DNA from: a virus
IMG/VR virus record: IMGVR_UViG_3300025645_000053
Coordinates: 13,924-77,923 of that record
Direction: 5' to 3' (one strand)
DNA: 64,000 bases
Of this stretch, positions 11,817-28,591 are shown piece after piece. The position numbers were made by a program, and so were the translations under genes. Below the pieces are notes generated by a model that had not been told where the DNA came from, did not search any database, and saw nothing but the letters and a program-made list of their open reading frames with translations. The first letter of the stretch is position 1. The number at the start of each line of letters is the position of its first letter.

Positions 11817-13169
11817 ATGGATTTAAAAACACTAAGCGACGATGAGCTGCGAGCTTTACATTATGAATACAGTAAAAAGTATTCAACGCTTGACAACCAA
11901 CAAATGAGTATCAAAATCCTAAACTTATTGGGCCTCTAATCAGGAATGATTAGATGAGAATCGGGTGAACTCAGGGAAGGCTTTAATATGCTAATCCTGA
12001 GCCAAGACCTTTATTATGTAAAGGTAAGGTGCAACGACTATCCGAAAGGAGTAGAGATCAAGTGGTCTCGAAGCGCCCGACAGCCAGACCGGCTGATGAT
12101 ATAGTCTGATCTTATACGAAAGTATAAGCTGGGTTCGTCCCGGGATATGATTAACGCTCGTATCCGAACATCATGAATGAACAGTTTGTATGGTGCGATG
12201 GGTTCAGCTTACTTCAGATATTTTGATTTGCGAATGGCTGAAGGCATTACATTGTATGGTCAGTTATCAATTCGTTGGGCTGAGAAATCGTTTAACAACT
12301 TCATTAATAAAATCATGGGTACTACCAAATGTGATTATGTTATTGCTGCTGATACTGATTCTAATTATTTAGATTTTGGCCCACTTGTCGAAAAACTCGG
12401 ATTAGCAAAAACTAATGATACTAAAGGTATTGTTGATATTATCGACAAAATGTGCAGCGATCAGTTTGAACCAATGATTGCTAAATGTTATGACGATCTT
12501 GCTAAATACATGCATGCCTATCAGAACAAAATGGTTATGGAACGTGAAGTAATTGCTGATCTTGGTATATGGACTGCAAAGAAACGTTATATACTAAATG
12601 TACATAACTCTGAAGGTGTATCATTTAAAGAACCTAAACTAAAGATCATGGGTATCGAAGCAATTAAATCTTCAACACCAGCAATATGTCGTGATGCTTT
12701 AAAGAATATCTTCAAGGTTATAATGACTGGTTCTGAGCTTAAAACCCGTAAGGCTATTACTGACTTTCAAGAGTTCTTTCATGCTCAGCCGCCTGAAGCA
12801 GTATCGTTTCCACGTGGAGTTTCTGATATTGTTAAATGGCGCGATGGTGACGGATATAAGTCAAGATGTCCTATACATGTACGCGGCGCTATAATGTATA
12901 ATGTTGGTATTGAGCAGAAGAAACTTAAAAAGTATACTGCAGTTCGTAATGGCGACAAAGTTAAGTTCTGTTACCTTAAGTTGCCTAATCCCATCAAGGA
13001 AAATGTTATTTCGTTTCCTGATTATTTACCGCCTGAGTTAAATTTGAATGCGTATGTTGATTATGATAAGCAATTCAGTAAAACCTTTATAGATCCAATT
13101 GAACCTGTACTTAAGGCTATCGGTTGGTCAGTTGAAGAGCAGTCGAGTTTGGAGGATTTCTTCGGTTAA
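11817..13169 (+). CDS. 43: DNA polymerase gp43 part 3, spliced: join(11817..11920,12176..13169)
   Basis: Exon 1 MDLKTLSDDEL...QQMSIKI plus CT|A restores KILMNSLYG (motif B); ADTDS (motif C), KKRY, C-terminal SSLEDFFG. Confidence 0.92.
11921..12175 (+). ncRNA. ORF-less group I intron (255 nt)
   Basis: 5' exon ends in U with P1 CCU|AA..UUGGG; terminal G; P7 GACTA/TAGTC; TCAGGG/CCTGAG pairing; removal restores frame and motif B. Confidence 0.92.
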
Positions 13170-13982: not shown

Positions 13983-15300
13983 TCTTGATAATGTAGTTAA
14001 AACCATAAAGGCTCTTGAGTCGACAACAAAGCGTCTTGAAAAAGAAGCGATATTGACAAAGGTTTTGTCTTCGACTGAGCCTTGGGCTGAAGTATTCATT
14101 GACGGTTTTAAAGCTGCGCTTGATACATATACGACATATGGTGTCAAAAAGCTGCCTTATGGTAAAGACGGTAAAAGTTGCGAAAGCACTTATTCTCGGT
14201 TTTGTGCTGTTGCTCGCAATCTGAAAAATCGTGAATTGACTGGTCATAATGCACTTGACGCGCTTGATGTATTTGCTAATACTCAATGCTCAGAATATCA
14301 TTGGGTCGGTTTCTTTAGACGGATTCTTTCACGTGACATGCGCTGCGGAGTCAATGTATCGACATGGAATAACGTTGCAAAGAAAGCTAATAAAGATGCT
14401 ATGATTCCAGTATTTAGTTGTCAACTTGCAAAGGACGGCGCTAAAGAAAAAGCTATCACTGGTACTAAACTTGTTGAAGTAAAACTTGATGGTGTACGTG
14501 TTATCACTATTGTTCGCCCGGATAGAACAGAAATGTATAGTCGGAACGGAAAACGTCTTGATAACTTTGTTAAGGTTCGCGAATGGTTTGAAGCAAAGGT
14601 TGCTCCACATATTGCTGAAGCAATGGTATTTGATGGCGAAATTATGTCAAGTTCATTCAATGATTTAATGACTCAAGTACGTCGTAAGTCTGATGTTCAA
14701 ACTGATGATGCAGTTCTTCATGTATTCGATTGTTTACCGCTTGAAGACTTCAAAACTGGTTTTTATCCCAGGAGTAATATTGTTCGTAAAGAAACACTGA
14801 CCACTTATGCTGATTTCTTTAACGATAGAATTATTCGTGCTTGCTCTCATAAAGTTGTCGACTTCGATACTGAAGAAGGACTTGCATCATTCAAACAATT
14901 GAATAAAGAAGCGATTGATGGCGGATACGAAGGTCTAATGTTAAAAGATCCTCAATCTCCATATACATGCAAACGTAATAAAGATTGGTTGAAGATTAAA
15001 CCATTCATTGAAGTTACGCTTAAAGTTATTGCAATCGAAGAAGGTACTGGAAAGTACGTTGGTTCAACAGGAGCATTGGTTTGTGAAGGAGTTGACGATG
15101 GCGTAGCGATTACTGTAAACGTTGGTTCAGGATTAACTGATGAAATGCGTAAAGACATATGGGCTGACCAATCAAAAGTCATTGGTCAACTTGTCGAAAT
15201 AAAAGCAGACGCTGTGTCTCAAAACAGTAATGGAACAAATAGTTTACGGTTCCCACGGTTTAAAACCTTCCGTGGATTTGACATTAACGAGAAACTTTGA
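13975..15300 (+). CDS. 30: ATP-dependent DNA ligase
   Basis: EVKLDGVR, FDGE, EGLMLK, WLKIK, SLRFPRF. Confidence 0.95.
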   Translation: MLNLDNVVKTIKALESTTKRLEKEAILTKVLSSTEPWAEVFIDGFKAALDTYTTYGVKKLPYGKDGKSCESTYSRFCAVARNLKNRELTGHNALDALDVFANTQCSEYHWVGFFRRILSRDMRCGVNVSTWNNVAKKANKDAMIPVFSCQLAKDGAKEKAITGTKLVEVKLDGVRVITIVRPDRTEMYSRNGKRLDNFVKVREWFEAKVAPHIAEAMVFDGEIMSSSFNDLMTQVRRKSDVQTDDAVLHVFDCLPLEDFKTGFYPRSNIVRKETLTTYADFFNDRIIRACSHKVVDFDTEEGLASFKQLNKEAIDGGYEGLMLKDPQSPYTCKRNKDWLKIKPFIEVTLKVIAIEEGTGKYVGSTGALVCEGVDDGVAITVNVGSGLTDEMRKDIWADQSKVIGQLVEIKADAVSQNSNGTNSLRFPRFKTFRGFDINEKL

Positions 15301-15334
15301 TATAATAGATCTACAATAAACTGGAGAAGTAAAT

Positions 15335-15711: not shown

Positions 15712-16131
15712 ATGAGTAAAGATTGGTGTAAAGACATTGCTGAAATGCACGAGAAATATAAAGTTCGCGGTTGGGTAGCAAACAATCCTGAGAAACTTAA
15801 AGAGTTTTTGGCGTTTCGTATCATGTTTTTAGAAGAAGAACTTAATGAAACATATGCCGCGCTTGAAGCAAAAGATGCTGAAGAGCTTGTAGACGGTTTG
15901 ATTGATTTGTGTGTTGTCGCAATTGGTACGCTTGATGCGTTCGCTATCGACCCATACAAAGCTTGGGACAGAGTTCTTAAAGCCAATATGGCAAAAGAAG
16001 TTGGTCAGAAAGCTACGCGACCTAACGCACTTGGTCTTCCTGATTTGATAAAGCCGACAATGGAATCGCACGGTTATGATTGGACTGCACCATCGCATGA
16101 AGGTAATCACGGTTTGTTCACTAAGATATAG
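15712..16131 (+). CDS. MazG/PRA-PH-like dNTP pyrophosphatase
   Basis: EEELNE...EELVDGLID, ANMAK, LIKP. Confidence 0.8.
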   Translation: MSKDWCKDIAEMHEKYKVRGWVANNPEKLKEFLAFRIMFLEEELNETYAALEAKDAEELVDGLIDLCVVAIGTLDAFAIDPYKAWDRVLKANMAKEVGQKATRPNALGLPDLIKPTMESHGYDWTAPSHEGNHGLFTKI

Positions 16132-16230
16132 CCATATTCTTTTAAGTTCTAATAAACTTATTGACATGGAAGTCAATACTTGATATAATAGTACCATAAA
16201 TTGATAACAACTATTTGGAAATATTATATT

Positions 16231-16512
16231 ATGACTACTCGCTCAAACGCTTATATCACCACTCTTGACCCAACTTCAACTGACGACATGGCAATACTTG
16301 CCAAAATCCGCGCACGTGTTACTGCCGCAAATAAAAGATCTTTAAAACAACAACGTGTTTGCGTTCGCGGCCGTAAGCCTATAACTAAAAAGACAATTAC
16401 TAACTTCTGGACTGGCCACACAAGCACTGTTGGTTTTGACCACGGTGGCAATGTTGTTGGTGGCCTTGCCAATGCTTCTTCACTTGATGTTTACATTTAC
16501 GCGCGTCGTTAA
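16231..16512 (+). CDS. hypothetical early protein
   Basis: Follows an early promoter module. Confidence 0.65.
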   Translation: MTTRSNAYITTLDPTSTDDMAILAKIRARVTAANKRSLKQQRVCVRGRKPITKKTITNFWTGHTSTVGFDHGGNVVGGLANASSLDVYIYARR

Positions 16513-16526
16513 TTGGAAATTATATT

Positions 16527-16982
16527 ATGAAAAATTTATTGAAAAATACTACATATTTGGGTTCTCTTTCTATAGATGGCAAAAGGTTAAAGTTTTCACG
16601 TGCATTAAACATGGCACGCTGTAACGTTATTGCTATGGGCGACGTTGTCTATTTCATGTGTATTAAAAACAAAATCCATAAAATAGGTATTGCTGGCGGT
16701 GAAACCGGCTGGGAAAGTCGGGTTAATATGTACAGTAAAGGTGAAACCGAAGGGGGTGATGCTACTAATCGCCGTATATTTAAAGAATTGCGCGAAATGT
16801 GCGAAACTAATATTGACATTTACGCAGTTTCCGCTCCTCGCCAAAAGATTGTATTGACATGTCCCATTAAAGGTGATATAATAGAACATTATGTACAAAC
16901 TCATCGCGCAGTTGAACTCAGTTTAACTCAGCAGTATATCAAAAGCGGCGGGGAGTTAAGATTCTGCCGCCAACTCAACTAA
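16527..16982 (+). CDS. GIY-YIG nuclease, endonuclease II (DenA)-like
   Basis: VVYF..KIG, RVNMY, DAT, IDIYA and a conserved Glu; layout resembles T4 EndoII. Confidence 0.55.
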   Translation: MKNLLKNTTYLGSLSIDGKRLKFSRALNMARCNVIAMGDVVYFMCIKNKIHKIGIAGGETGWESRVNMYSKGETEGGDATNRRIFKELREMCETNIDIYAVSAPRQKIVLTCPIKGDIIEHYVQTHRAVELSLTQQYIKSGGELRFCRQLN

Positions 16983-16992
16983 GGAAACCACT

Positions 16993-17460
16993 ATGACTGA
17001 AAGATCATCAGTAAAAGTATTACAAGAATGCATTGAATTGCAGACCGCAAAGTCTCGTGATTATCAAAACGCTAAATCGACCGTTCGTCAAGCTGACTAT
17101 TATCCGCATGGCGTAAATACCATTATGGATATTATTCATGCTAAAACCCTTCGTATACGTTCTGTTATCGAAGCAATGGAAAATGATCCTGATTATAAAC
17201 CTAACTTTGAGTCGATGGAAGATTCACTTAAAGACATGATTAACTATGCTTCGTTTGCAGTTGCTTATTCACGTGGTGAAGTTGACGGCCAGTCTACCGA
17301 TCGCGATTTCTTAAACCGTCAACTTAATGCGCCTGTATCTGATTCTGAGCCGTCTACTCTTTTAAAACCATTTACTGATGAAGATATAGACGCTATGAAT
17401 ATGTTTCCAACGCATTCTTATGAAATTTTAAAAAATAACTGTGAAGAGCAGATGATATGA
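16993..17460 (+). CDS. nucleotide-modification-associated domain protein (Nmad1/DUF1599-like)
   Basis: KSRDY, KTLR, EDSLKDMINYA. Confidence 0.7.
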   Translation: MTERSSVKVLQECIELQTAKSRDYQNAKSTVRQADYYPHGVNTIMDIIHAKTLRIRSVIEAMENDPDYKPNFESMEDSLKDMINYASFAVAYSRGEVDGQSTDRDFLNRQLNAPVSDSEPSTLLKPFTDEDIDAMNMFPTHSYEILKNNCEEQMI

Positions 17461-18203
17461 ATATAGATGACATACGCGACCATTTCGTTGATGAACTTGA
17501 ATGGCACCAAGAAACAATTGATCGTGGTGGTAATAAGACGCTTGAAATGGTTGGTGCAAGTTTTATTGCTGACGATCCATGTATCTTCGGTACGCCTAAT
17601 ACTGAATACATTGACGCTGAGATCCGTTGGTATTTAACACAATCAACTAATGTTGGTACGCTTGCAAATATTTATGGCAAAACACCAGTTGCTTGGCAGG
17701 CAACCGCAAATCTTTATGGTGAAATAAACTCTAACTATGGCCATCTAATATTTGCTGAAAAGTTCCATAACCAATTCAAACAATGCTTAAATGAGTTAAA
17801 GGGTAATCCGTTTTCGCGTCGTGCTATCATGGTTTATAACCGTCCGTCTATTTGGATTGAATATAACGAAAACTCTAAAAACGATTTCATATGTACTAAT
17901 GCGGTATCATATTACATTCGTGATAATATGTTACAAGCTGTAGTTCAAATGAGAAGTAATGATTGTTGGGCAGGTTATAGAAATGACTATGCGTGGCAAA
18001 TGTACGTAATGGAATTGCTTAAAGACAATTATAATGAGTCAACTAATTCAGATATTAAAATAGGCAACCTTCATTGGCAAGTACAAAATTTGCACGTCTA
18101 TGAGAGAAACTTTTACTTAGTTGATCATTATAGTAAAACTGGTGAACACCATATATCAAAATCTGATTACATATCAACGTATCCTAAAAGTGAGTATATC
18201 TAA
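17457..18203 (+). CDS. 42: dCMP hydroxymethylase-like enzyme (thymidylate synthase fold)
   Basis: INSNYG, DFICTN, MRSND, GYRNDYAWQ, LHVYER match T4 gp42, including the dCMP-specific Asp. Confidence 0.88.
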   Translation: MNIDDIRDHFVDELEWHQETIDRGGNKTLEMVGASFIADDPCIFGTPNTEYIDAEIRWYLTQSTNVGTLANIYGKTPVAWQATANLYGEINSNYGHLIFAEKFHNQFKQCLNELKGNPFSRRAIMVYNRPSIWIEYNENSKNDFICTNAVSYYIRDNMLQAVVQMRSNDCWAGYRNDYAWQMYVMELLKDNYNESTNSDIKIGNLHWQVQNLHVYERNFYLVDHYSKTGEHHISKSDYISTYPKSEYI

Positions 18204-18646
18204 TGAGCAGTCTTTGGAACGAACGGTTTCTAGCGTTAGCACGTGAAGTAAGCACTTGGTCCAAAGACCCATCAACTAAAATCGGAGCGGTTGCAGTACG
18301 TGACCGCCAGATTCTTTCGGTGGGTTATAACGGGTTCCCACGTGGAGTTGAAGACACTGCCGAACGTTTAAACAACCGTGAAACAAAATACAAATATGTA
18401 GTTCATGCAGAACAGAACCTTATATACAATGCTGTTAATAATGGCGTCAGTTTAAAGAATTCTGCTTTATATGTTTGGGGACTACCCGTTTGTAGCGAAT
18501 GTGCAAAGGGAGTTATTCAAGCAGGTTTCTCAAAAGTTTATTGGGCAACCGATTCTAATAAAACTATTGACAAACGATGGGAAGTATTATATAATAGTAC
18601 TGTTGAAATGTTTAATGAAGTTGGAATAGAAGTATATGCCTTATAA
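18203..18646 (+). CDS. cd: dCMP deaminase
   Basis: SKDPSTKIGA, GYNG, HAEQN, CSEC. Confidence 0.93.
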   Translation: MSSLWNERFLALAREVSTWSKDPSTKIGAVAVRDRQILSVGYNGFPRGVEDTAERLNNRETKYKYVVHAEQNLIYNAVNNGVSLKNSALYVWGLPVCSECAKGVIQAGFSKVYWATDSNKTIDKRWEVLYNSTVEMFNEVGIEVYAL

Positions 18647-18986
18647 TGGAAACACTCTTGTAGTTGATTTTGATGATACGCTTTGCATACATCCACATGA
18701 TGACAAGTCTAACATCGCTTGCGGTAAACCAAATTACGATCTTATAAGTGAAATTAATAGGCTCTTCGATAAGGGCTTTGACATATTCATATATACTGCA
18801 CGCGGTCACTTCAGCGCCGACAATCGAGCTGACGCTGAACATAAATACCGTAATGTTATTGAAGTATGGCTAATGGAACATTCTGTTAGTTACACAAAGC
18901 TTTCGTTTGATAAGCCTTATGCAGTTTATTACATTGATGATAAAGCAATAAGGCCAGATGAACTATACTTATTGGAGAAGTTATGA
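18636..18986 (+). CDS. HAD-family phosphatase (capsule-biosynthesis phosphatase-like)
   Basis: DFDDT, YTARG, KP..YYIDDKA. Confidence 0.85.
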   Translation: MPYNGNTLVVDFDDTLCIHPHDDKSNIACGKPNYDLISEINRLFDKGFDIFIYTARGHFSADNRADAEHKYRNVIEVWLMEHSVSYTKLSFDKPYAVYYIDDKAIRPDELYLLEKL

Positions 18987-20509
18987 TTGGCATAATACCT
19001 GCTGCAGGTCGCGGCGTAAGATTCAAAGAACTTGGTAAACAATACAGTAAAACCATTTTACCGTATAAAGAAGTACCTATCCTCATTCATCAAATTAAAT
19101 GGCTAGAGGATTCTGGCTGTAACGATATTAGAGTTGTAGTAAACCATCAAGAAGAAACTGTACACGATATGTTGGCGATGTATGGAAAGACTCAAGTTAA
19201 AGTTGTACGTCAACAAGAACACAATGGTTTATCAGGTGCTATCTTTGCGGCTTTAAAACCAGAAGATAACGATTCGGTATTGATTGTCCTTGGTGATATT
19301 GTTGTTAAGTCGGATGCGTCTAAATATTTCAATGAAAACTTTGTGTCTGTCATTGAAGTAGAAGACTATGCTAGATGGTGTATGGTTCAAACATCAGCGA
19401 ATAAGATTTCTACATTTATTGATAAACCTACGGAACGGCCTGATACCAATCTTGCTTTAAGCGGTGTATATCATATTCTCGATTCGGTTAACTTATATGA
19501 GTTATTACGTGAGCAATTGCAACATGAAGAAACTAAGATCGCAGGCGAATTTCAGTTAAGTGGTGTTTTACAATCAATTGCTGATTGGGATCATATGATA
19601 ACTGTGTCACTTGGGCATATTGACTTTGGGACTCTTGAAGAATACTTAAGTAATCGTTCAGTTAAAAACTCAAGATCTTTTAATAATTTGTACGTCGATG
19701 ATGTAACGGTTCGAAAGTCGTCTGAAACACATGGACAGAAATTAATAGAAGAATTCAATTGGTATAATAACTTGCCCATGGGACTTACATTAAACACGCC
19801 AAGAATGCTGTCACACGAGTTCTTTGATCCGCATCAATGCGTATGTTACGTAATGGAAAAGATATTGGCACCAACGTTCCGCGAAATATATTTGTTTCTT
19901 GATACTTCAACCGAAACTTGGAGAACAATCTTCAATTCATCGTTTAGGCTATTGAACAAGATGGAGTCATATGGACAACCTAACAACTTTATGGACACGG
20001 TTGTTAAAAAGACGGTTTCACGGGTAAACGATATTAATCTTGCAATTAATCACGACATAATAAACAAATTCATTATAACATTAGAAGACGCTGTTGCTAA
20101 ACATGAGCATGTACCAACATTAATGCACGGCGACTTTTGCTTTAGCAATCTGATGTACGATTTCAATTCTGACCGTGTTACTATGATAGATCCAAGAGGT
20201 CAGCTATTTGGCGATCATTATTACGAAGTAGCTAAGTTGATGCATTCAGCGGTATATAATTATGATATCATTGATTCTGAACTCTATGTTAAAAACGGTA
20301 ATGATGTTCGTTTGTATTCAAAGGGTAAAGAAGAGGTTGCGGCTGAGTTCATGCGCATTCTAAAGAATAATTACAGCGATGAAGATATTCGTTACATTAA
20401 GATTATTGTTGCCAGTTTGTTCTTAAGCATGATACCTTTACATTCGCACAGTAAAACTAACCAAGAACAATATTATAAAATATTTAAAGATATCTATTTA
20501 CATTTATAG
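18983..20509 (+). CDS. sugar-phosphate nucleotidyltransferase fused to an APH/choline-kinase-like kinase
   Basis: IPAAGRGVRF...K, LGD; C-terminal HGDFCFSN, IDPRG. Confidence 0.85.
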   Translation: MIGIIPAAGRGVRFKELGKQYSKTILPYKEVPILIHQIKWLEDSGCNDIRVVVNHQEETVHDMLAMYGKTQVKVVRQQEHNGLSGAIFAALKPEDNDSVLIVLGDIVVKSDASKYFNENFVSVIEVEDYARWCMVQTSANKISTFIDKPTERPDTNLALSGVYHILDSVNLYELLREQLQHEETKIAGEFQLSGVLQSIADWDHMITVSLGHIDFGTLEEYLSNRSVKNSRSFNNLYVDDVTVRKSSETHGQKLIEEFNWYNNLPMGLTLNTPRMLSHEFFDPHQCVCYVMEKILAPTFREIYLFLDTSTETWRTIFNSSFRLLNKMESYGQPNNFMDTVVKKTVSRVNDINLAINHDIINKFIITLEDAVAKHEHVPTLMHGDFCFSNLMYDFNSDRVTMIDPRGQLFGDHYYEVAKLMHSAVYNYDIIDSELYVKNGNDVRLYSKGKEEVAAEFMRILKNNYSDEDIRYIKIIVASLFLSMIPLHSHSKTNQEQYYKIFKDIYLHL

Positions 20510-20554
20510 TAAAATTTGATATAATAGCTATCTAATCAACTAAGGGGGAACATT

Positions 20555-21799
20555 ATGGGTCGCACGTACGTGATCGGGAAGATCGGCAAGTCTATAAAAT
20601 TTAAGCCTAGCACGTGGGGTGCTATCGGCGGAGATAATGAAGCACCCACACTATATCTTAAGTTAGCTGAACTTAATCCTGATGATACTTTTATCATGAT
20701 AGGCAAAAGCGATCTTTATAAGATGCGTGGCTTGCCCACAAATCTTCATGATGCCTGGGCACATTACACGAAAGGTGAATCTGATGCCATAGCGTTTATA
20801 ACTAATCATCTGAAGAATACTAAGGTTGATGCTGGAATTATGGTAGCTGGTCCAACTGGCGACGTAAACTTTCAAGAAAGGATATACACTCTATCTTCGA
20901 TTAAAGCAGGTAAACCACAACTAGCCAAAACTCTGTTTATGCACGAGAATTACAGCGGTCCTATTTATGATTATCTTAATGATAGCATGATACCTTGGAT
21001 AATGATTAACAATGATCCGCGGTATTTAAAGCTTGGCCGAGATATGTTTAATATGCCAAAAGAAATACTTTCACAATACGATTCAGCTAAATTGTATCGT
21101 CACATATCTTCATATGAAGACCAAACTCTGTTAGTCGATCATCGAGTACAATATAAGTATGCTGGTGTAGAAAAAGTCTTTCTTATTAATAAAGAATTGG
21201 TTAATATCGAAAAGACTAAGAAGTTTATGGTAGTTCTTAATGAAGGAAGTAATGGTGTTAGTTCGCGCTATAACAAGTTAAAAGAATATGTACTTGACCA
21301 CGTTGAGGACGTTGATATTTATGGCAAATGGGATGAAGACACTGTAAAAGGCGATAAGCGCTTTAAAGGGTCGATTAAGTTTGAGGAACTGCAGCAGATG
21401 TTACCTGAGGTCAAATATTCCTTTATGATATCTATTCGAGACGGTTGGGTTACAATGAAAGTTTGGGAATTGATTAGCAATGGTATTATACCGTTCTTGC
21501 ATCCAAATTATGACGACCAACACCATATTGCAGTACCCGAGTTTTTGAGACTTAGTAAACCTGAAGAGTTACACGAGCGCATTGAGCAACTTGAAAACGA
21601 CCCTGTCTTATATAATAAGATATTACAGGAATGCCAATATCTTATTACACCAGATGATACAAGCGGCAAAGTATTATGCGATAAGATTACTAGTACAATA
21701 AATAACTATCGAAGCTCTACTACAGGAACCAAATCTTATGATGAAGTTCTTCAAGAAATAGCCGATGATAGTAATGATTTAACGCACTTCTTTGGATGA
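20555..21799 (+). CDS. GT-B glycosyltransferase (beta-glucosyltransferase-like)
   Basis: NDPR, VDIYGKW, FKG, TMKVWE, IPF..YD; own promoter. Confidence 0.7.
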   Translation: MGRTYVIGKIGKSIKFKPSTWGAIGGDNEAPTLYLKLAELNPDDTFIMIGKSDLYKMRGLPTNLHDAWAHYTKGESDAIAFITNHLKNTKVDAGIMVAGPTGDVNFQERIYTLSSIKAGKPQLAKTLFMHENYSGPIYDYLNDSMIPWIMINNDPRYLKLGRDMFNMPKEILSQYDSAKLYRHISSYEDQTLLVDHRVQYKYAGVEKVFLINKELVNIEKTKKFMVVLNEGSNGVSSRYNKLKEYVLDHVEDVDIYGKWDEDTVKGDKRFKGSIKFEELQQMLPEVKYSFMISIRDGWVTMKVWELISNGIIPFLHPNYDDQHHIAVPEFLRLSKPEELHERIEQLENDPVLYNKILQECQYLITPDDTSGKVLCDKITSTINNYRSSTTGTKSYDEVLQEIADDSNDLTHFFG

Positions 21800-23031
21800 T
21801 TAATAAAATGAAAAATGATTATAGTTGGGCCCCTCACATACCGCTTATTGGCGGCCTCCCACTTGGCGCAGAAGCAGCACTAGGTAAAGCACCTAAATTT
21901 GTATCAAGTCTTGATGGGTTTTGGGCTAATGATAGTCTTTATATGAACCATCAGAACGAAACGCTGTCTCGTGGAATAGACTACCGACCTTTAGACCCAG
22001 GCGAACGCAGTTTTGTTGAAAAGGTTAACATTGTTGTATCAACACCACCATGCGCAGGTTTATCACAATTGAATACTGGTAAAGCTAACTCTGCAGCAAA
22101 AGGTGCTGATGCCGAAAAGAATCAGTTTATGTACATCGCGGCTGAACAGGCAATGAAGTGTTATGATGCCGATGTAATCGTTGGCGAGAATGCTCCTGCG
22201 CTATATACAAATAAAGGAAAGCCAGTTGCGGATAAGCTTTTACAAATTGCACGTGATAATGGGTATTCTTTCTCATTGTATAAAACAACTACCTCTTTAC
22301 ATGGTATTCCTCAGAATCGCGACCGTACGTTCTACACATTTTGGAAAGGCGATAAAGCACCAATTCAATCATGGTTTAACGAATCACGTAAAAACTTCCC
22401 TGATTACTTGAAAGAAGTAACCAATGAAATGTCTCACCAAAGCGACATTATCAATGATAAAATCGGTACTGGCGAATCGTATTATAACTTCATTCAGTAT
22501 AAGAACCCTGGCGAAAATCCTCGTGATATTGTGATTGCGAATAATTGCTCAACTGCATTCAATTATGTTAGGCGCGGTGGCTTCTTACAGGAAGCGATTG
22601 ACTACTTTGAAGCGATTGATGATACAAAAGGCTTGCATTTAGCAACACATGCTAAAATGAAATTCTCTAAAGGCTTAGGCATTTGGGATGGTTCAACTCA
22701 CGTATTCAATGAATGTATGAATGCATGTATCAGTCGTAACATGAATGATACAATTCATCCAGTGCATGACCGTTCAATGACTATTCGCGAAGCATTACAT
22801 ATGATGGGCTTTCCGCATAACTTCAGTCTCCCTGGTGGAAAACGTAGTGTACCGTTTATTGCTCAAAACGTTCCGGTATGTACTGCAGCGTCAATGGTCG
22901 GTGAAGCAGTTAAGTTTTTAAATGGCGAATTGGAATTATCTGATAGTGATTTTGTTAAACAAAACAATCATCATCAACGAATAGATGCAGGCAATATTGC
23001 AACAAACACATTAGAACAATTCATTGCGTAA
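21796..23031 (+). CDS. atypical C5 cytosine methyltransferase-like protein
   Basis: PPCAGLS, ENAP, HGIPQNRDRTF, RSMTIREA..MGFP; motif I reads PLIGG. Confidence 0.8.
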   Translation: MINKMKNDYSWAPHIPLIGGLPLGAEAALGKAPKFVSSLDGFWANDSLYMNHQNETLSRGIDYRPLDPGERSFVEKVNIVVSTPPCAGLSQLNTGKANSAAKGADAEKNQFMYIAAEQAMKCYDADVIVGENAPALYTNKGKPVADKLLQIARDNGYSFSLYKTTTSLHGIPQNRDRTFYTFWKGDKAPIQSWFNESRKNFPDYLKEVTNEMSHQSDIINDKIGTGESYYNFIQYKNPGENPRDIVIANNCSTAFNYVRRGGFLQEAIDYFEAIDDTKGLHLATHAKMKFSKGLGIWDGSTHVFNECMNACISRNMNDTIHPVHDRSMTIREALHMMGFPHNFSLPGGKRSVPFIAQNVPVCTAASMVGEAVKFLNGELELSDSDFVKQNNHHQRIDAGNIATNTLEQFIA

Positions 23032-23087
23032 ACCATTGACATCAATACAGAACTGTGATATAATTAATTGAATTGGAGTAATACACT

Positions 23088-25142: not shown

Positions 25143-25212
25143 AACTAAAATAACTATTGACATCGACAGGGAAGTCGGATATAATAGTATATTACGAATT
25201 GGGGATACGCTA

Positions 25213-25455
25213 ATGGCATATAGCAGTTTAGGATCATACAAGAATCATCATTACACTATTGATGATCCTATATCTTTACGTAGGGAAGTGCGTGAGCACG
25301 ATACTAATAAATTAGTAGCATTTGTATCAAAGGAAATAGTTGACGCGATGCAAGACGATATTACGTTAAAATTGGAGATTATTAGAAGTGCTGGCATGTT
25401 AACGATTAACCCGTGGTCTTTTGAACCATACACCACAAAAATTGAGGATTTATAA
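25213..25455 (+). CDS. hypothetical protein
   Basis: Own promoter and RBS. Confidence 0.6.
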   Translation: MAYSSLGSYKNHHYTIDDPISLRREVREHDTNKLVAFVSKEIVDAMQDDITLKLEIIRSAGMLTINPWSFEPYTTKIEDL

Positions 25456-25730
25456 TGTACAAGTTTATTGATAGCGACCAATATGATACAATGCCAATAC
25501 AGATAACTGAAGGAGATTTTGCTGATACAGTTTTTCGTTATCATAGTCTAGAAATTACTGAAGAAGAGGACGGCCTGAATATCAGTTACAAATTCGATAT
25601 AATCGAAGGCAGTGAAGAACTCCGCGAAGATGTAAAATTCCATGAGCTGATGAGTGCAACTTTGAATACGATAGTTGAAGCAAGCGCCAAAGAAGCCATT
25701 GAAGCTAAGGAACTTGTTGATGGAAACTGA
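25455..25730 (+). CDS. gp40-like protein
   Basis: Acidic; lies between uvsX and gene 41 as gp40 does in T4. Confidence 0.55.
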   Translation: MYKFIDSDQYDTMPIQITEGDFADTVFRYHSLEITEEEDGLNISYKFDIIEGSEELREDVKFHELMSATLNTIVEASAKEAIEAKELVDGN

Positions 25731-27108
25731 GTTAGAGTCGATGATCCTAAAGAGCCTTATAACTAACGAAGGTTTTACAAGAAGAGTAATCCCGTTTTTA
25801 AAGAAAGAATACTTTGAAGGACGCCATGCCAATATCTTCAATAACATTATTGATTTTGTTGCAAAGTATAATAAGTTGCCTAACATTGAAGCGCTAAGCG
25901 TTGAGCTGCAGTCTGGTGATATATCAGATGGTCAGTATGAAGAATCCGCAATGGCTTTAAATGACCTTAAGAACGTTGATGAAAAGGTTGATGAAACTTG
26001 GTTACTCGACTCAACTGAAAAGTGGTGCCAAGACCGTTCTATTTACCTAGCAATTATGGAATCTATATCAGTTATTGACGGCAAACACAAAACTTTATCA
26101 AAGAATAGTTTACCTGAGTTATTACAAGATGCTTTAGCAGTTTCCTTTGATACCAACATTGGTCATAGTTATCTTGCTGATTCCGACTCTCGGTTTGAGT
26201 TCTATCACAGGAAAGAAGCACGTTTGCCGTTTGATTTAGAAATGATGAATCGTATTACAAAGGGTGGGTTACCTCCAAAAACATTGAACTGTATCATGGC
26301 ATCGTCAGGTGGTGGTAAGTCACTAATGATGACGCATATTGCGGCTGCGGCTATGATGCAAGGCAAAAACGTTCTGTATATTACAATGGAAATGAGTGAA
26401 GAAAGTATAGCACAACGTGTTGATGCAAACATGCTTAATATTTCACTTGATGACTTACTTTTGATGCCTAAGAATCTATACACTGATCGTATGGCAAAAC
26501 TGAATAAAAAAACTAATGGCGAGTTAATCATAAAGGAATATCCAACAAGTTCTGTTCACTGTGGACATTTCCGAGCATTACTTAATGAATTAAAAGTTAA
26601 GAAGAAGTTCGTCCCACAACTCGTAGTTGTTGATTATATTAATATCTGTACAAGTTCAAGATTGAAAGGTGGTGGTATGGATAACTCATACATGTTAATA
26701 AAATCAATAGCTGAAGAATTGCGTGGACTTGCTGTTGAAAATAACTTTCCGATTATAACCGCAACGCAAACAAACAGAGCAGGCTTCGGTGATACTGATG
26801 TTGATATGAATAACGTTTCAGAATCATTTGGTTTACCGGCAACATGTGATATGTTACTTGCATTGATTACAACACCAGAACTTGATGAATTAAACCAAAT
26901 AATGGTAAAACAATTAAAAAATCGTTATGGTGACATTAGCACATATACTCGTTTCATGCTTGGTATTGAACGCGCTAAAATGCGTTTATACGATGCCGAA
27001 GATGACGCTAGTGATGGACTTGTAACAAGCAATTCTGCACCAGTTGCTTCAACTTCACCATTCTCAAAGAAAGAAAAACCACAAGGCTTCCAAGGATTTA
27101 AAGTATAA
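25720..27108 (+). CDS. 41: replicative helicase gp41
   Basis: GGGKS, ITMEM, VDYINI, AEELRGLA, TATQTNR, SESFG, QLKNRY. Confidence 0.96.
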   Translation: METELESMILKSLITNEGFTRRVIPFLKKEYFEGRHANIFNNIIDFVAKYNKLPNIEALSVELQSGDISDGQYEESAMALNDLKNVDEKVDETWLLDSTEKWCQDRSIYLAIMESISVIDGKHKTLSKNSLPELLQDALAVSFDTNIGHSYLADSDSRFEFYHRKEARLPFDLEMMNRITKGGLPPKTLNCIMASSGGGKSLMMTHIAAAAMMQGKNVLYITMEMSEESIAQRVDANMLNISLDDLLLMPKNLYTDRMAKLNKKTNGELIIKEYPTSSVHCGHFRALLNELKVKKKFVPQLVVVDYINICTSSRLKGGGMDNSYMLIKSIAEELRGLAVENNFPIITATQTNRAGFGDTDVDMNNVSESFGLPATCDMLLALITTPELDELNQIMVKQLKNRYGDISTYTRFMLGIERAKMRLYDAEDDASDGLVTSNSAPVASTSPFSKKEKPQGFQGFKV

Positions 27109-27602
27109 TGATAAGAGTAATATTTGCAGTAGAAACTCACATGGGGTATTCTAATAAGGGCACGATGCCTGATTGGAAAAGTACAGCTGACTTTAAGCAT
27201 TTCAAAGAAAGCACTGAAGGTCAGATAGTAGTCATGGGGTCGAAGACATGGGAAGATCCTATGATGAAAAGACCTTTACCTAACCGCATTAATTGTGTTG
27301 TTTCTACACGTGACGATTTGATTAATGCTGATAAAATAAATCATTTAATAAGCAGCCAAGATCTTGTAAGTCAAATGCGATTACTTGAAAAAACGTATCC
27401 AAACAAAGATATCGTAATCATCGGTGGGTGGAATATTATTAGTCAATGTTTACCTGTTATCGAGAAAGTTACTTTAACTGTAATGTATGAAAAATACGAG
27501 ACTGATAAGAGACTTCCTTTGGGTTGGTTAATAGGATACGGTCTAGGTAAAACGTTTAAACTGTCGGATGGCAAAGGAAAAGTGGTTGAGTATATAAAAT
27601 GA
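27108..27602 (+). CDS. frd: dihydrofolate reductase
   Basis: DFKHFK, VMGSKTW, RPLPNR, IIGG. Confidence 0.92.
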   Translation: MIRVIFAVETHMGYSNKGTMPDWKSTADFKHFKESTEGQIVVMGSKTWEDPMMKRPLPNRINCVVSTRDDLINADKINHLISSQDLVSQMRLLEKTYPNKDIVIIGGWNIISQCLPVIEKVTLTVMYEKYETDKRLPLGWLIGYGLGKTFKLSDGKGKVVEYIK

Positions 27603-28591
27603 GAGATTATGATAAAGTACTCAGAAACATATTAGAAAATGGCCAACCAACCGATGATCGTACCGGTGTTGGCACGTTTGCTACATTCGGCGAAAGAATG
27701 GAGTTTGACTTAAACGAAGGGTTTCCTGCTATAACAACAAAACGTTTGGCATGGAAGTCAGTCGTAAGTGAGTTACTTTGGTTCCTTGAAGGATCAGATG
27801 ATGAACGCCGACTCGCTGAAATCCTGTATGATAAGCCTCGAGCAGAACTAGTTGATAAGAAAACTATCTGGACTGATAATGCCGATAATCAAGGTAAAAA
27901 CTTAGGATACATTAATAGCAATAATGCTAAAGGTCTTGGTCCAGTTTATGGCGTTCAATGGACAAGTTGGTATAACGGCGCAACTGACGAGCACCATAAC
28001 CAAATAATTGAGTTGATTGATGGTATTAAGAATGATCCATATTCAAGAAGACATATACTAAATGCTTGGAACGTCTCAAATATACCAAAAGCAGATGATT
28101 TTATGACAAATGAGCCATTGACGAAAGAAGCGTTCTTAGAAAAATTAAAAAATAATAAAGAATTTAATTTGAAATATGGGAAAAGACTAAAACCCGGACG
28201 AAACCCTATGGCATTACCGCCTTGTCATGTTATGGCTCAGTTCCATGTTCAGAATGGTAAGCTAAGTTGTCAGATGTACCAACGGTCGGCTGATATGTTT
28301 TTAGGTATTCCTTTTAATATTGCAAGTTACGCTTTATTAACTCATATGATTGCTAGTATTACTGGATATGAAGTAGGTAAACTGATTATAATAATCGGCG
28401 ATGCTCATATCTATAAGAACCATGTTGAACAAGTTAAAGAACAATTGTCACGTGAGCATTATCCGTTACCTACACTTACAATGCCTGCTTTAGGTCCAAC
28501 TGAAGTTAGCATTTCACGAACTAAAACCGTTGATTACATTCTTGAGAATTATAATCACCATCCAACTATTAAAGCGGAGATGGCCGTATGA
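27599..28591 (+). CDS. td: thymidylate synthase
   Basis: DRTGVGT, ELLWFL, GPVYG, MALPPCH, QRSADMFLGIPFN. Confidence 0.97.
   Translation: MRDYDKVLRNILENGQPTDDRTGVGTFATFGERMEFDLNEGFPAITTKRLAWKSVVSELLWFLEGSDDERRLAEILYDKPRAELVDKKTIWTDNADNQGKNLGYINSNNAKGLGPVYGVQWTSWYNGATDEHHNQIIELIDGIKNDPYSRRHILNAWNVSNIPKADDFMTNEPLTKEAFLEKLKNNKEFNLKYGKRLKPGRNPMALPPCHVMAQFHVQNGKLSCQMYQRSADMFLGIPFNIASYALLTHMIASITGYEVGKLIIIIGDAHIYKNHVEQVKEQLSREHYPLPTLTMPALGPTEVSISRTKTVDYILENYNHHPTIKAEMAV

Follow-up and report, generated by a model that had tools for sequence, protein, structure and literature searches.

Which modified cytosine does a virus make when it carries, within a single block, a T4-type enzyme acting on dCMP, genes for an activated sugar, a relative of the enzyme that glucosylates T4 DNA and a protein resembling the C5-cytosine methylases? 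This question is raised by 10 open reading frames (ORFs), all of them on the + strand, at positions 15712-23031 of a 64,000-nucleotide stretch of viral DNA (hereafter the window), which represents bases 13924-77923 of the 77.9-kb linear IMG/VR virus contig IMGVR_UViG_3300025645_000053 (CheckV completeness 43%). An earlier note on this DNA had described the block, with these same coordinates, as a cluster of hypermodification genes. In this regard, the coordinates of all the ORFs and the families of most of them were confirmed, and dozens of independent IMG/VR contigs were seen to hold the same genes together, so that their clustering is not a matter of chance. As judged from its sequence, the block probably encodes a two-stage hypermodification of cytosine, expressed early from host-type promoters, whose product would be a glycosylated 5-hydroxymethylcytosine (5hmC) with a sugar delivered by a phage-made nucleoside diphosphate (NDP)-sugar. 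The cluster is a new combination of two known systems, namely the T4-type route to hydroxymethylcytosine (hmC) and the donor route of the Afh system for arabinosyl-5-hydroxycytosine, reported for phages RB69, DLP3, HY126 and LC53 (PMC13326640). The nature of these bases is of consequence, as it is the sugar coat on the cytosines that decides whether a phage escapes a given restriction, CRISPR or type IV system.

The gp42-type enzyme and the nature of the base

The ORF at 17457-18203 (+) encodes a protein with the thymidylate synthase fold (PF00303, 1.6e-13), whose match to the T4 dCMP hydroxymethylase gp42 (PDB 1b49) spans residues 1-242 with an E value of 6.9e-74. The catalytic cysteine (C146 of E. 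coli ThyA) is kept, with the sequence NDFICTN of the window aligned to SDFMCTN of T4, and aspartate occupies all three of the positions L143D, D169 and N177D (in the motifs NDFICTN, RSND and RND, respectively). According to section 24 of PMC13326640, N177D leads to cytosine specificity and L143D/E, which affects water access, to a non-methyl product. In sections 24 and 28 of that article, Lee et al. show RB69 and DLP3 to have 'gp42-like' enzymes that are flavin-dependent 5-hydroxy-dCMP synthases, and the same source gives the D169N change (E. coli ThyA numbering) as the mark of such synthases. Where the window reads RSND, both RB69 gp48 and its LC53 homolog read RSQN. The signature formed by RSND, NDF and RND, combined with the match to T4 gp42, leads us to predict that the window enzyme is a dCMP hydroxymethylase of the T4 type producing 5-hydroxymethyl-dCMP, in agreement with the claim of the earlier note that the phage makes hmC.

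An alternative would be an RB69-type base, arabinosyl-5-hydroxycytosine, with a flavin-dependent 5-hydroxy-dCMP synthase supplying its precursor, an idea encouraged by the gene neighbourhood, as homologous HAD and nucleotidyltransferase-kinase genes adjoin a thymidylate synthase homolog in the window just as they do in RB69, DLP3 and LC53. However, the window enzyme lacks the D169N change and shows 28% identity to RB69 gp48, to be compared with an E value of 7e-74 to T4 gp42. Moreover, there is no SIS isomerase in the contig, and the window transferase is unrelated to the first arabinosyltransferase of LC53, all of which makes an RB69-type base very improbable. For the enzyme itself, the reading as a 5-hydroxy-dCMP synthase like RB69 gp48 was rejected on the RSND motif.

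A 5-hydroxymethyl-dCMP synthase would work within a wider set of nucleotide-pool enzymes. The block opens with a nucleoside triphosphate (NTP) pyrophosphohydrolase of the MazG/PRA-PH type (15712-16131, +; PF01503 2.1e-8, above the cut-off, and phrog_671 2.2e-18), an inferred candidate dCTPase with homologs of 48-69% identity in 18 module loci. This protein was also considered as an ortholog of the T4 dCTPase gp56, a possibility that was rejected, with no similarity being found to RB69 gp56. On the other side of the gp42-type gene lies a dCMP deaminase (18203-18646, +; PF00383 5.3e-18, phrog_174 2.5e-42). Before replication, the MazG-like enzyme would return dCTP to dCMP, a role assumed from its family membership, and the gp42-type enzyme would convert dCMP to 5-hydroxymethyl-dCMP, with the deaminase, a dihydrofolate reductase (DHFR) and the canonical thymidylate synthase td balancing dTMP and folate. 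The resulting hm-dCTP would then be incorporated into the phage DNA.

Predicted supply of the activated sugar

Two overlapping genes that follow the deaminase encode the putative machinery for donor synthesis. The first one (18636-18986, +) corresponds to a HAD-type sugar-phosphate phosphatase similar to AfhF, the gp51 of RB69 (TIGR01689 5.5e-12, phrog_1238 6.3e-21), with 35% identity to RB69 ORF051 (gp51) and 37% to the LC53 homolog, and with its HAD motifs intact (DFDDT for DxDxT, followed by T, K and DD). The second one (18983-20509, +) encodes an AfhE-like fusion of 508 aa between an N-terminal nucleotidyltransferase (NT) and a C-terminal APH-like sugar kinase (PF00483 1e-12, PF12804 9.5e-13, PF01636 1e-4), hereafter the NT-kinase, which can be aligned end to end with the NTP-transferase protein of LC53 (24% over 476 aa, E 7e-11). 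Across 30 NT-kinase homologs, the invariant positions comprise GxGxR...K in the transferase half and HGDxxxxN and IDPRG in the kinase half, where the window reads HGDFCFSN for the first of the two kinase motifs. A search of the PDB with the family profile found RmlA/GalU-type enzymes to be closest (3hl3, 9e-17), and the NT domain is nearest to glucose-1-phosphate thymidylyl- and uridylyltransferases, which suggests a UDP- or dTDP-sugar as the donor.

In the phage HY126 work cited in section 27 of PMC13326640, AfhE acts twice, first as a C1 kinase on arabinose-5-phosphate and later in the formation of UDP-arabinose, with AfhF taking off the 5-phosphate between the two AfhE steps. The kinase/phosphatase/nucleotidyltransferase logic of donor synthesis is already known for phage DNA, with AfhF and AfhE being RB69 gp51 and gp52:53 (described in 2025-2026, PMC13326640). 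In this line, the earlier note had proposed that the phage builds its own NDP donor through these three activities, and the genes of such a pathway are indeed present, but the logic itself is not new. By homology to AfhE and AfhF, a sugar phosphate taken from the host would be phosphorylated at its C1 by the kinase domain of the fusion, after which the HAD phosphatase would strip off the distal phosphate and the RmlA-like N-terminal domain would form the UDP- or dTDP-sugar. The likeness to the Afh system extends from this donor logic (sugar phosphate to bisphosphate, to 1-phosphate, to NDP-sugar) to the gene content, with an AfhF-like HAD protein and an AfhE-like fusion beside a thymidylate synthase homolog and with a transferase of the GT-B type. 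In contrast to the Afh system, the predicted base precursor of the window is the 5-hydroxymethyl and not the 5-hydroxy form (D169 being kept), there is no arabinose-5-phosphate isomerase, and the transferase belongs to another lineage, similar to the T4 beta-glucosyltransferase (BGT); with identities of 24-35%, the sugar may differ as well.

A plainer reading of the same cassette is that it only allows the phage to supply its own UDP-glucose, from glucose-6-phosphate through glucose-1,6-bisphosphate and glucose-1-phosphate, so that the DNA would carry glucosyl-hmC, the same base as in T4. The closeness of the NT domain to enzymes handling glucose-1-phosphate fits this scheme, as does the use of UDP-glucose by the nearest known relative of the transferase, and the window cluster has no sugar-tailoring gene, with the SIS isomerase not found either in the contig or in five relatives. 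On the other hand, those HAD and NT-kinase homologs that have been characterised make UDP-arabinose and not UDP-glucose (section 27 of PMC13326640), and the identity of the window transferase to BGT is about 14% in a structural alignment. Furthermore, relatives with the same pair of glycosyltransferase and methylase-like genes (hereafter the GT-MT pair) carry pentose-/ketose-phosphate enzymes or a GalE-like epimerase, which would point to non-glucose sugars. We regard plain glucosyl-hmC as unlikely, and the sugar is most likely a pentose such as arabinose, or some other non-glucose sugar. The earlier note overstated the matter in calling the donor unusual; it may also be UDP-glucose made by the phage itself.

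The variation among relatives is informative in this respect. The GT-MT pair and the gp42 gene are common to several contigs whose donor cassettes differ. One of these contigs (L111, 3446-6697) carries a HAD protein and an NT-kinase along with an HxlB-like SIS isomerase and an Rpe/AlsE-like 3-epimerase, a second one (L087, 6340-8711) a HAD-kinase fusion and an RfaE-domain-II-like transferase, a third one (L081, 4789-8270) a HAD-PRK fusion with a double NT, and a fourth one (L012, 6028-7023) an additional GalE-like epimerase. The module keeps the base and the GT-MT pair and swaps the sugar supply. Such different donor cassettes beside the same pair suggest that the family uses more than one sugar, and they speak to some extent against plain glucose. 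The NT-kinase family comprises 216 homologs with 36-60% identity and is found in 42 IMG/VR loci, which were recovered by an alignment-based scan (a single-sequence scan had given none). A HAD gene accompanies the NT-kinase in nearly all of these loci, and the gp42-HAD-NT-kinase-GT-MT module occurs in 7 of the 42. L053, which likewise has the GT-MT pair and the gp42 gene and is otherwise closest to the window in gene order, carries an NT-kinase with just 24% identity to that of the window.

The module is also carried by cultured phages. Pseudoalteromonas phage vB_Psh_XG4 (PP712099) shows the order thymidylate synthase (D-type), HAD, NT-kinase, GT (37%), a second GT-like gene and a methylase-like gene (43%), the second GT-like gene being an addition with respect to the window. 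The Enterococcus phages 9183, TJE4 and Planchet have Tmk, a D-type thymidylate synthase, dUTPase, HAD, NT-kinase and GT without the methylase-like gene, and in 9183 the identity is 30% both for the NT-kinase and for the GT. Within the collection of papers that was searched, there was no description of the module, nor of the DNA chemistry of XG4 or of the Enterococcus phages.

Two further observations concern the donor genes of relatives. The loci with the closest NT-kinase relatives (L007, 11526-12920; L011, 6223-7665; L012, 3063-4469) have, between their NT-kinase and transferase genes, a conserved ORF of 464-480 aa that is absent from the window and had no match in Pfam or NCBIfam. In Stenotrophomonas phage DLP6 (KU682439; locus L003), a HAD homolog at 25151-25465, upstream of the NT-kinase AAY80_029, is unannotated in GenBank.

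The glycosyltransferase and its methylase-like partner

The transferase gene (20555-21799, +) encodes a GT-B protein of 414 aa that appears as a DNA glycosyltransferase homologous to T4 BGT (family GT63). This enzyme is its sole sequence match in the PDB (1bgt, E 1.5e-7; residues 103-358 against 55-325), and the match to phrog_7922 (1.6e-10) gives the same name, although a PDB search with the profile of the GT family gave a BGT match of 0.002, weaker than that of the single sequence. In an AlphaFold2 (AF2) model built from ten relatives (mean predicted local distance difference test, pLDDT, of 83), the top six PDB folds returned by Foldseek were all T4 BGT (2e-12 to 6e-9), whereas the next fold scored 5e-8 and the T4 alpha-glucosyltransferase ranked 11th. 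The position of the catalytic acid D100 of BGT corresponds to D143 in the window (D or E in the relatives), and those of its nucleotide-binding residues R195, R269 and E272 correspond to R238, K302 and E305, of which R238 and K302 are invariant and E305 nearly so. As a homolog, both in sequence and in modelled fold, of a DNA glucosyltransferase, the protein would act on DNA rather than on lipopolysaccharide (LPS) or protein, in line with the target assumed by the earlier note. After replication, this BGT-like transferase would add the sugar to the hydroxyl of 5hmC in the DNA.

A different destination for the sugar can also be conceived, with the sugar genes forming an auxiliary metabolic set for a cell-surface or protein glycan that has no link to DNA. 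The HAD protein matches indeed a family of capsule-biosynthesis phosphatases (TIGR01689), and Pfam detects in the transferase nothing but weak, generic glycosyltransferase matches. Against these two points stand the homology of the transferase to a DNA-specific enzyme by sequence and fold, the start/stop overlaps that join the sugar genes with the gp42-type and deaminase genes, and the co-recurrence of the set in dozens of phage contigs, so that we give hardly any credit to a glycan outside DNA.

Glycosylation of 5hmC in DNA brings the window close to the T-even glucosyl-hmC system, which in T4 consists of the gp56 dCTPase, the gp42 dCMP hydroxymethylase, the gp1 kinase and the alpha- and beta-glucosyltransferases. 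Both have a gp42 enzyme (of ortholog grade in the window, E 7e-74) with the same active-site signature, a transferase of BGT homology, dCMP deaminase, td and DHFR, and early expression. Unlike T4, the fragment contains a MazG-type enzyme where no homologs of gp56 or of the gp1 kinase were found, and the window phage has its own genes for NDP-sugar synthesis and a C5-methylase-like partner, both of which are missing in T4.

This partner is encoded by the last gene of the block (21796-23031, +), whose start overlaps the GT stop by 4 nt. Its product is a divergent protein similar to C5-cytosine methyltransferases (PF00145 1.4e-18), and the C5-methylase motifs PPCAGLS (motif IV, PC), GENAP (motif VI, ENV in the standard form), QNRDR (motif VIII, QxRxR), TIREALHMMGFP (RE...GFP) and QNVP, the last two for motifs IX and X, are invariant in 25 homologs. 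Motif I, which serves the binding of SAM, reads IPLIGG as compared with FxGxG, with leucine for the first glycine, and the Pfam match begins at profile position 10. The AF2 model (pLDDT 90) has M.HaeIII, DNMT1 and M.HhaI as best folds, and also superposes on 8yf3, a C5-carboxymethyltransferase that uses carboxy-S-adenosylmethionine (carboxy-SAM).

The methylase-like family contains 1670 proteins, and tblastn detected it in 436 IMG/VR contigs, the best 80 of these 436 loci being searched with the window proteins for the counts given here. Where the locus reached 1.5 kb or more upstream (66 loci), a BGT-like gene directly preceded the methylase-like gene on the same strand in 63 cases (the median gap between the GT and methylase-like tblastn matches being 165 nt), and where it reached 6.5 kb or more upstream (26 loci), a gp42-type gene was present in every case. 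Moreover, each of the 33 gp42-type genes recovered from the methylase-centred loci shows the D143/D169/D177 signature. The converse does not hold, as more distant BGT-like genes (those of L027, L040, L045 and the Enterococcus phages) come without a methylase-like gene. The methylase-like protein is a member of the module. No fusion between the GT and the methylase-like protein was found, with the long forms of the family carrying other extensions. The module is widespread in marine phages. Given that its sugar cassettes swap and that the 436 contigs with methylase-like relatives are mostly without cultured hosts, it probably represents a whole family of marine viral DNA bases that have yet to be described. 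The tight pairing of a GT with a C5-methylase-like protein poses a clear puzzle, and phages XG4 and 9183 offer direct access to the chemistry.

A gene of the C5-methylase family adjoining a 5hmC DNA glycosyltransferase is also a feature of the phage MT-TET(5mYOX)-GT pathways (PMC8256090; bioRxiv 10.1101/2023.12.21.572611; Burke et al., Pyle et al.). Unlike those pathways, hmC in the window would arise before replication from the predicted gp42-type enzyme, and the search for a Tet_JBP dioxygenase (PF12851) in the contig and in five complete relatives gave none, on which ground the MT-TET-GT route was rejected.

What could such a protein do in the company of hmC? The earlier note had thought of a further SAM-dependent step, a proposal that turns out to be chemically awkward: because the protein is a homolog of C5-methylases and the C5 of hmC is already occupied, a straightforward methylation of the modified base or of its sugar does not come into question. 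It might instead be an ordinary SAM-dependent DNA C5-methylase, acting on unreplaced cytosines or on host DNA and taking no part in the sugar-base chemistry. The invariance of motifs IV, VI, VIII, IX and X is what such an enzyme would show, the model superposes on M.HaeIII, M.HhaI and DNMT1, and the stretch separating motifs VIII and IX shows conservation in the whole family, which would fit a single shared target. We also read the conserved acid of N45-D46 as standing at the motif II position of M.HhaI. However, an ordinary methylase leaves unexplained the linkage to the BGT-like gene (63/66) and to the gp42-type gene (26/26), motif I lacks the first glycine (IPLIGG), and one member of the family is fused to the helical domain of a 5-hydroxymethyldeoxyuridine (5-hmdU) DNA kinase. 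On balance, an ordinary methylase is a possibility to be taken seriously, though less likely than not. Methylation of those cytosines that escaped replacement, a sort of 'mop-up', is our plainest and least exotic guess for the methylase-like protein. In a bolder scheme, the enzyme is no methylase of plain cytosine, and its C6-attacking cysteine would be directed at the 5hmC or glycosyl-5hmC of the DNA, where the group at C5 would be exchanged or converted, leaving a final base other than a simple glycosyl-hmC; we consider this rather improbable, but if true, it would amount to a novel type of cytosine chemistry after replication, common in ocean phages.

Some of the data weigh against a glycosyl-5hmC made with a phage-built donor. 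With just 24-35% identity to the Afh enzymes that have been characterised, the window proteins cannot be assigned the substrate specificity or the sugar of the latter. The SIS arabinose-5-phosphate isomerase (PF01380) is missing both in the contig and in the five relatives, which are 91-100% complete, and the starting sugar phosphate would therefore have to come from the host; a phage-made arabinose-5-phosphate was rejected for this lineage on the lack of a SIS domain. In addition, the 43%-complete contig yielded neither a dNMP kinase nor a dCTPase of the gp56 type, so that the complete replacement of cytosine is an assumption. Finally, a C5-methylase has no obvious substrate in DNA where all the cytosine is hmC.

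Among the relatives of the methylase-like protein, the metagenome protein P0254 (889 aa, 36% identity) carries an N-terminal region with the 5-hmdU DNA kinase helical domain (PF18723, 6e-11); it keeps IPLVGG, PCAGLS, ENAP and QNVP, and no Walker A motif was seen in it by eye. Cyanophage S-TIM5 (NC_019516, locus L051; 3676-4512 and 6896-8113) has a distant methylase-like homolog (32%) and, 2.4 kb away, a thymidylate synthase homolog with RSND and the N177D change (VPLD), which suggests that this cyanophage may also modify cytosine at the nucleotide level.

Genomic setting of the block

The flanking genes are of the T4 replication type, including the C-terminal half of a DNA polymerase (12177), a ligase (13975), a primase (23088), UvsX (24090) and a gp41 helicase (25675), the last one with 53% identity to the helicases of Methylophilales phage Melnitz and marine cyanomyoviruses. 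These T4-type genes and the relatives of the helicase point to an uncultured marine T4-like phage as the source of the contig. A megablast search of the 7.3-kb block against the GenBank phage set found no near-identical phage record, and the G+C content is about 36% across the whole window. The polymerase gene is split, as the separate ORF at 12177-13169 covers just the C-terminal part of a family B enzyme (phrog_262, positions 520-852).

Folate and dTMP would be supplied by the pair found at 27108-28591 (+), where DHFR (PF00186 9e-23) at 27108 precedes the canonical td at 27599-28591 (PF00303 1.8e-93), so the separate td reported by the earlier note is certainly there. This td encodes 330 aa and has an insertion of about 33 residues before the catalytic-cysteine motif with respect to the aligned thymidylate synthase homolog of cyanophage S-TIM5.

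Regarding its expression, the block is preceded by a perfect sigma-70 promoter (TTGACA-17-TATAAT; 15278-15306, +), and further perfect consensus copies occur on the + strand at 16161-16189, 16854-16882, 18567-18595 and 23036-23064, whereas a copy matching 11 of 12 positions (20497-20525) stands just before the glycosyltransferase gene. There are thus 5 perfect 12/12 promoters within 8 kb, with an extended -10 TG in 4 of the 5; exact matches are far above chance, and the total of loose matches is not enriched. The late-promoter motif TATAAATA was not found between 10980 and 30694. Genes from 16993 to 20509 are joined by start/stop overlaps at 17457/17460, 18203, 18636/18646 and 18983/18986, and a last one occurs at 21796/21799. 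As judged from these promoters, the block is an early unit driven by the host polymerase.

The other genes at the 5' side of the block are less clear. An Nmad1/DUF1599-like protein (16993-17460, +; PF07659 3.8e-5, phrog_1485 2.3e-13) scores 24.4 bits, 0.6 bit short of the Pfam cut-off of 25 bits, and its homologs (54-64% identity) adjoin gp42 in 11 loci. Upstream of it, a possible stand-alone nuclease of the GIY-YIG type (16527-16982, +), called 'EndoII-like' in the earlier note, comes solely from a language-model Atlas (0.96, 204 shared features), with no sequence match in Pfam, PHROG or the PDB, T4 EndoII included; the GIY-YIG call is a lead rather than a finding, and homologs with 39-41% identity are present in 6 module loci. 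From the gene list of that note, the MazG, gp42-type, deaminase, HAD, NT-kinase, GT and C5-methylase-like assignments could be upheld, that of Nmad1 in a weaker form and that of EndoII without any match in sequence. A small conserved ORF at 16201-16512 (+) matches no family and has homologs of 44-52% identity in loci L006, L053 and L054. Further downstream in the window, the ORF at 34514-38728 encodes a protein of 1404 aa with a weak C-terminal match to the PARP catalytic domain (PF00644 1.3e-4, below the cut-off) and a strong match to phrog_18612.

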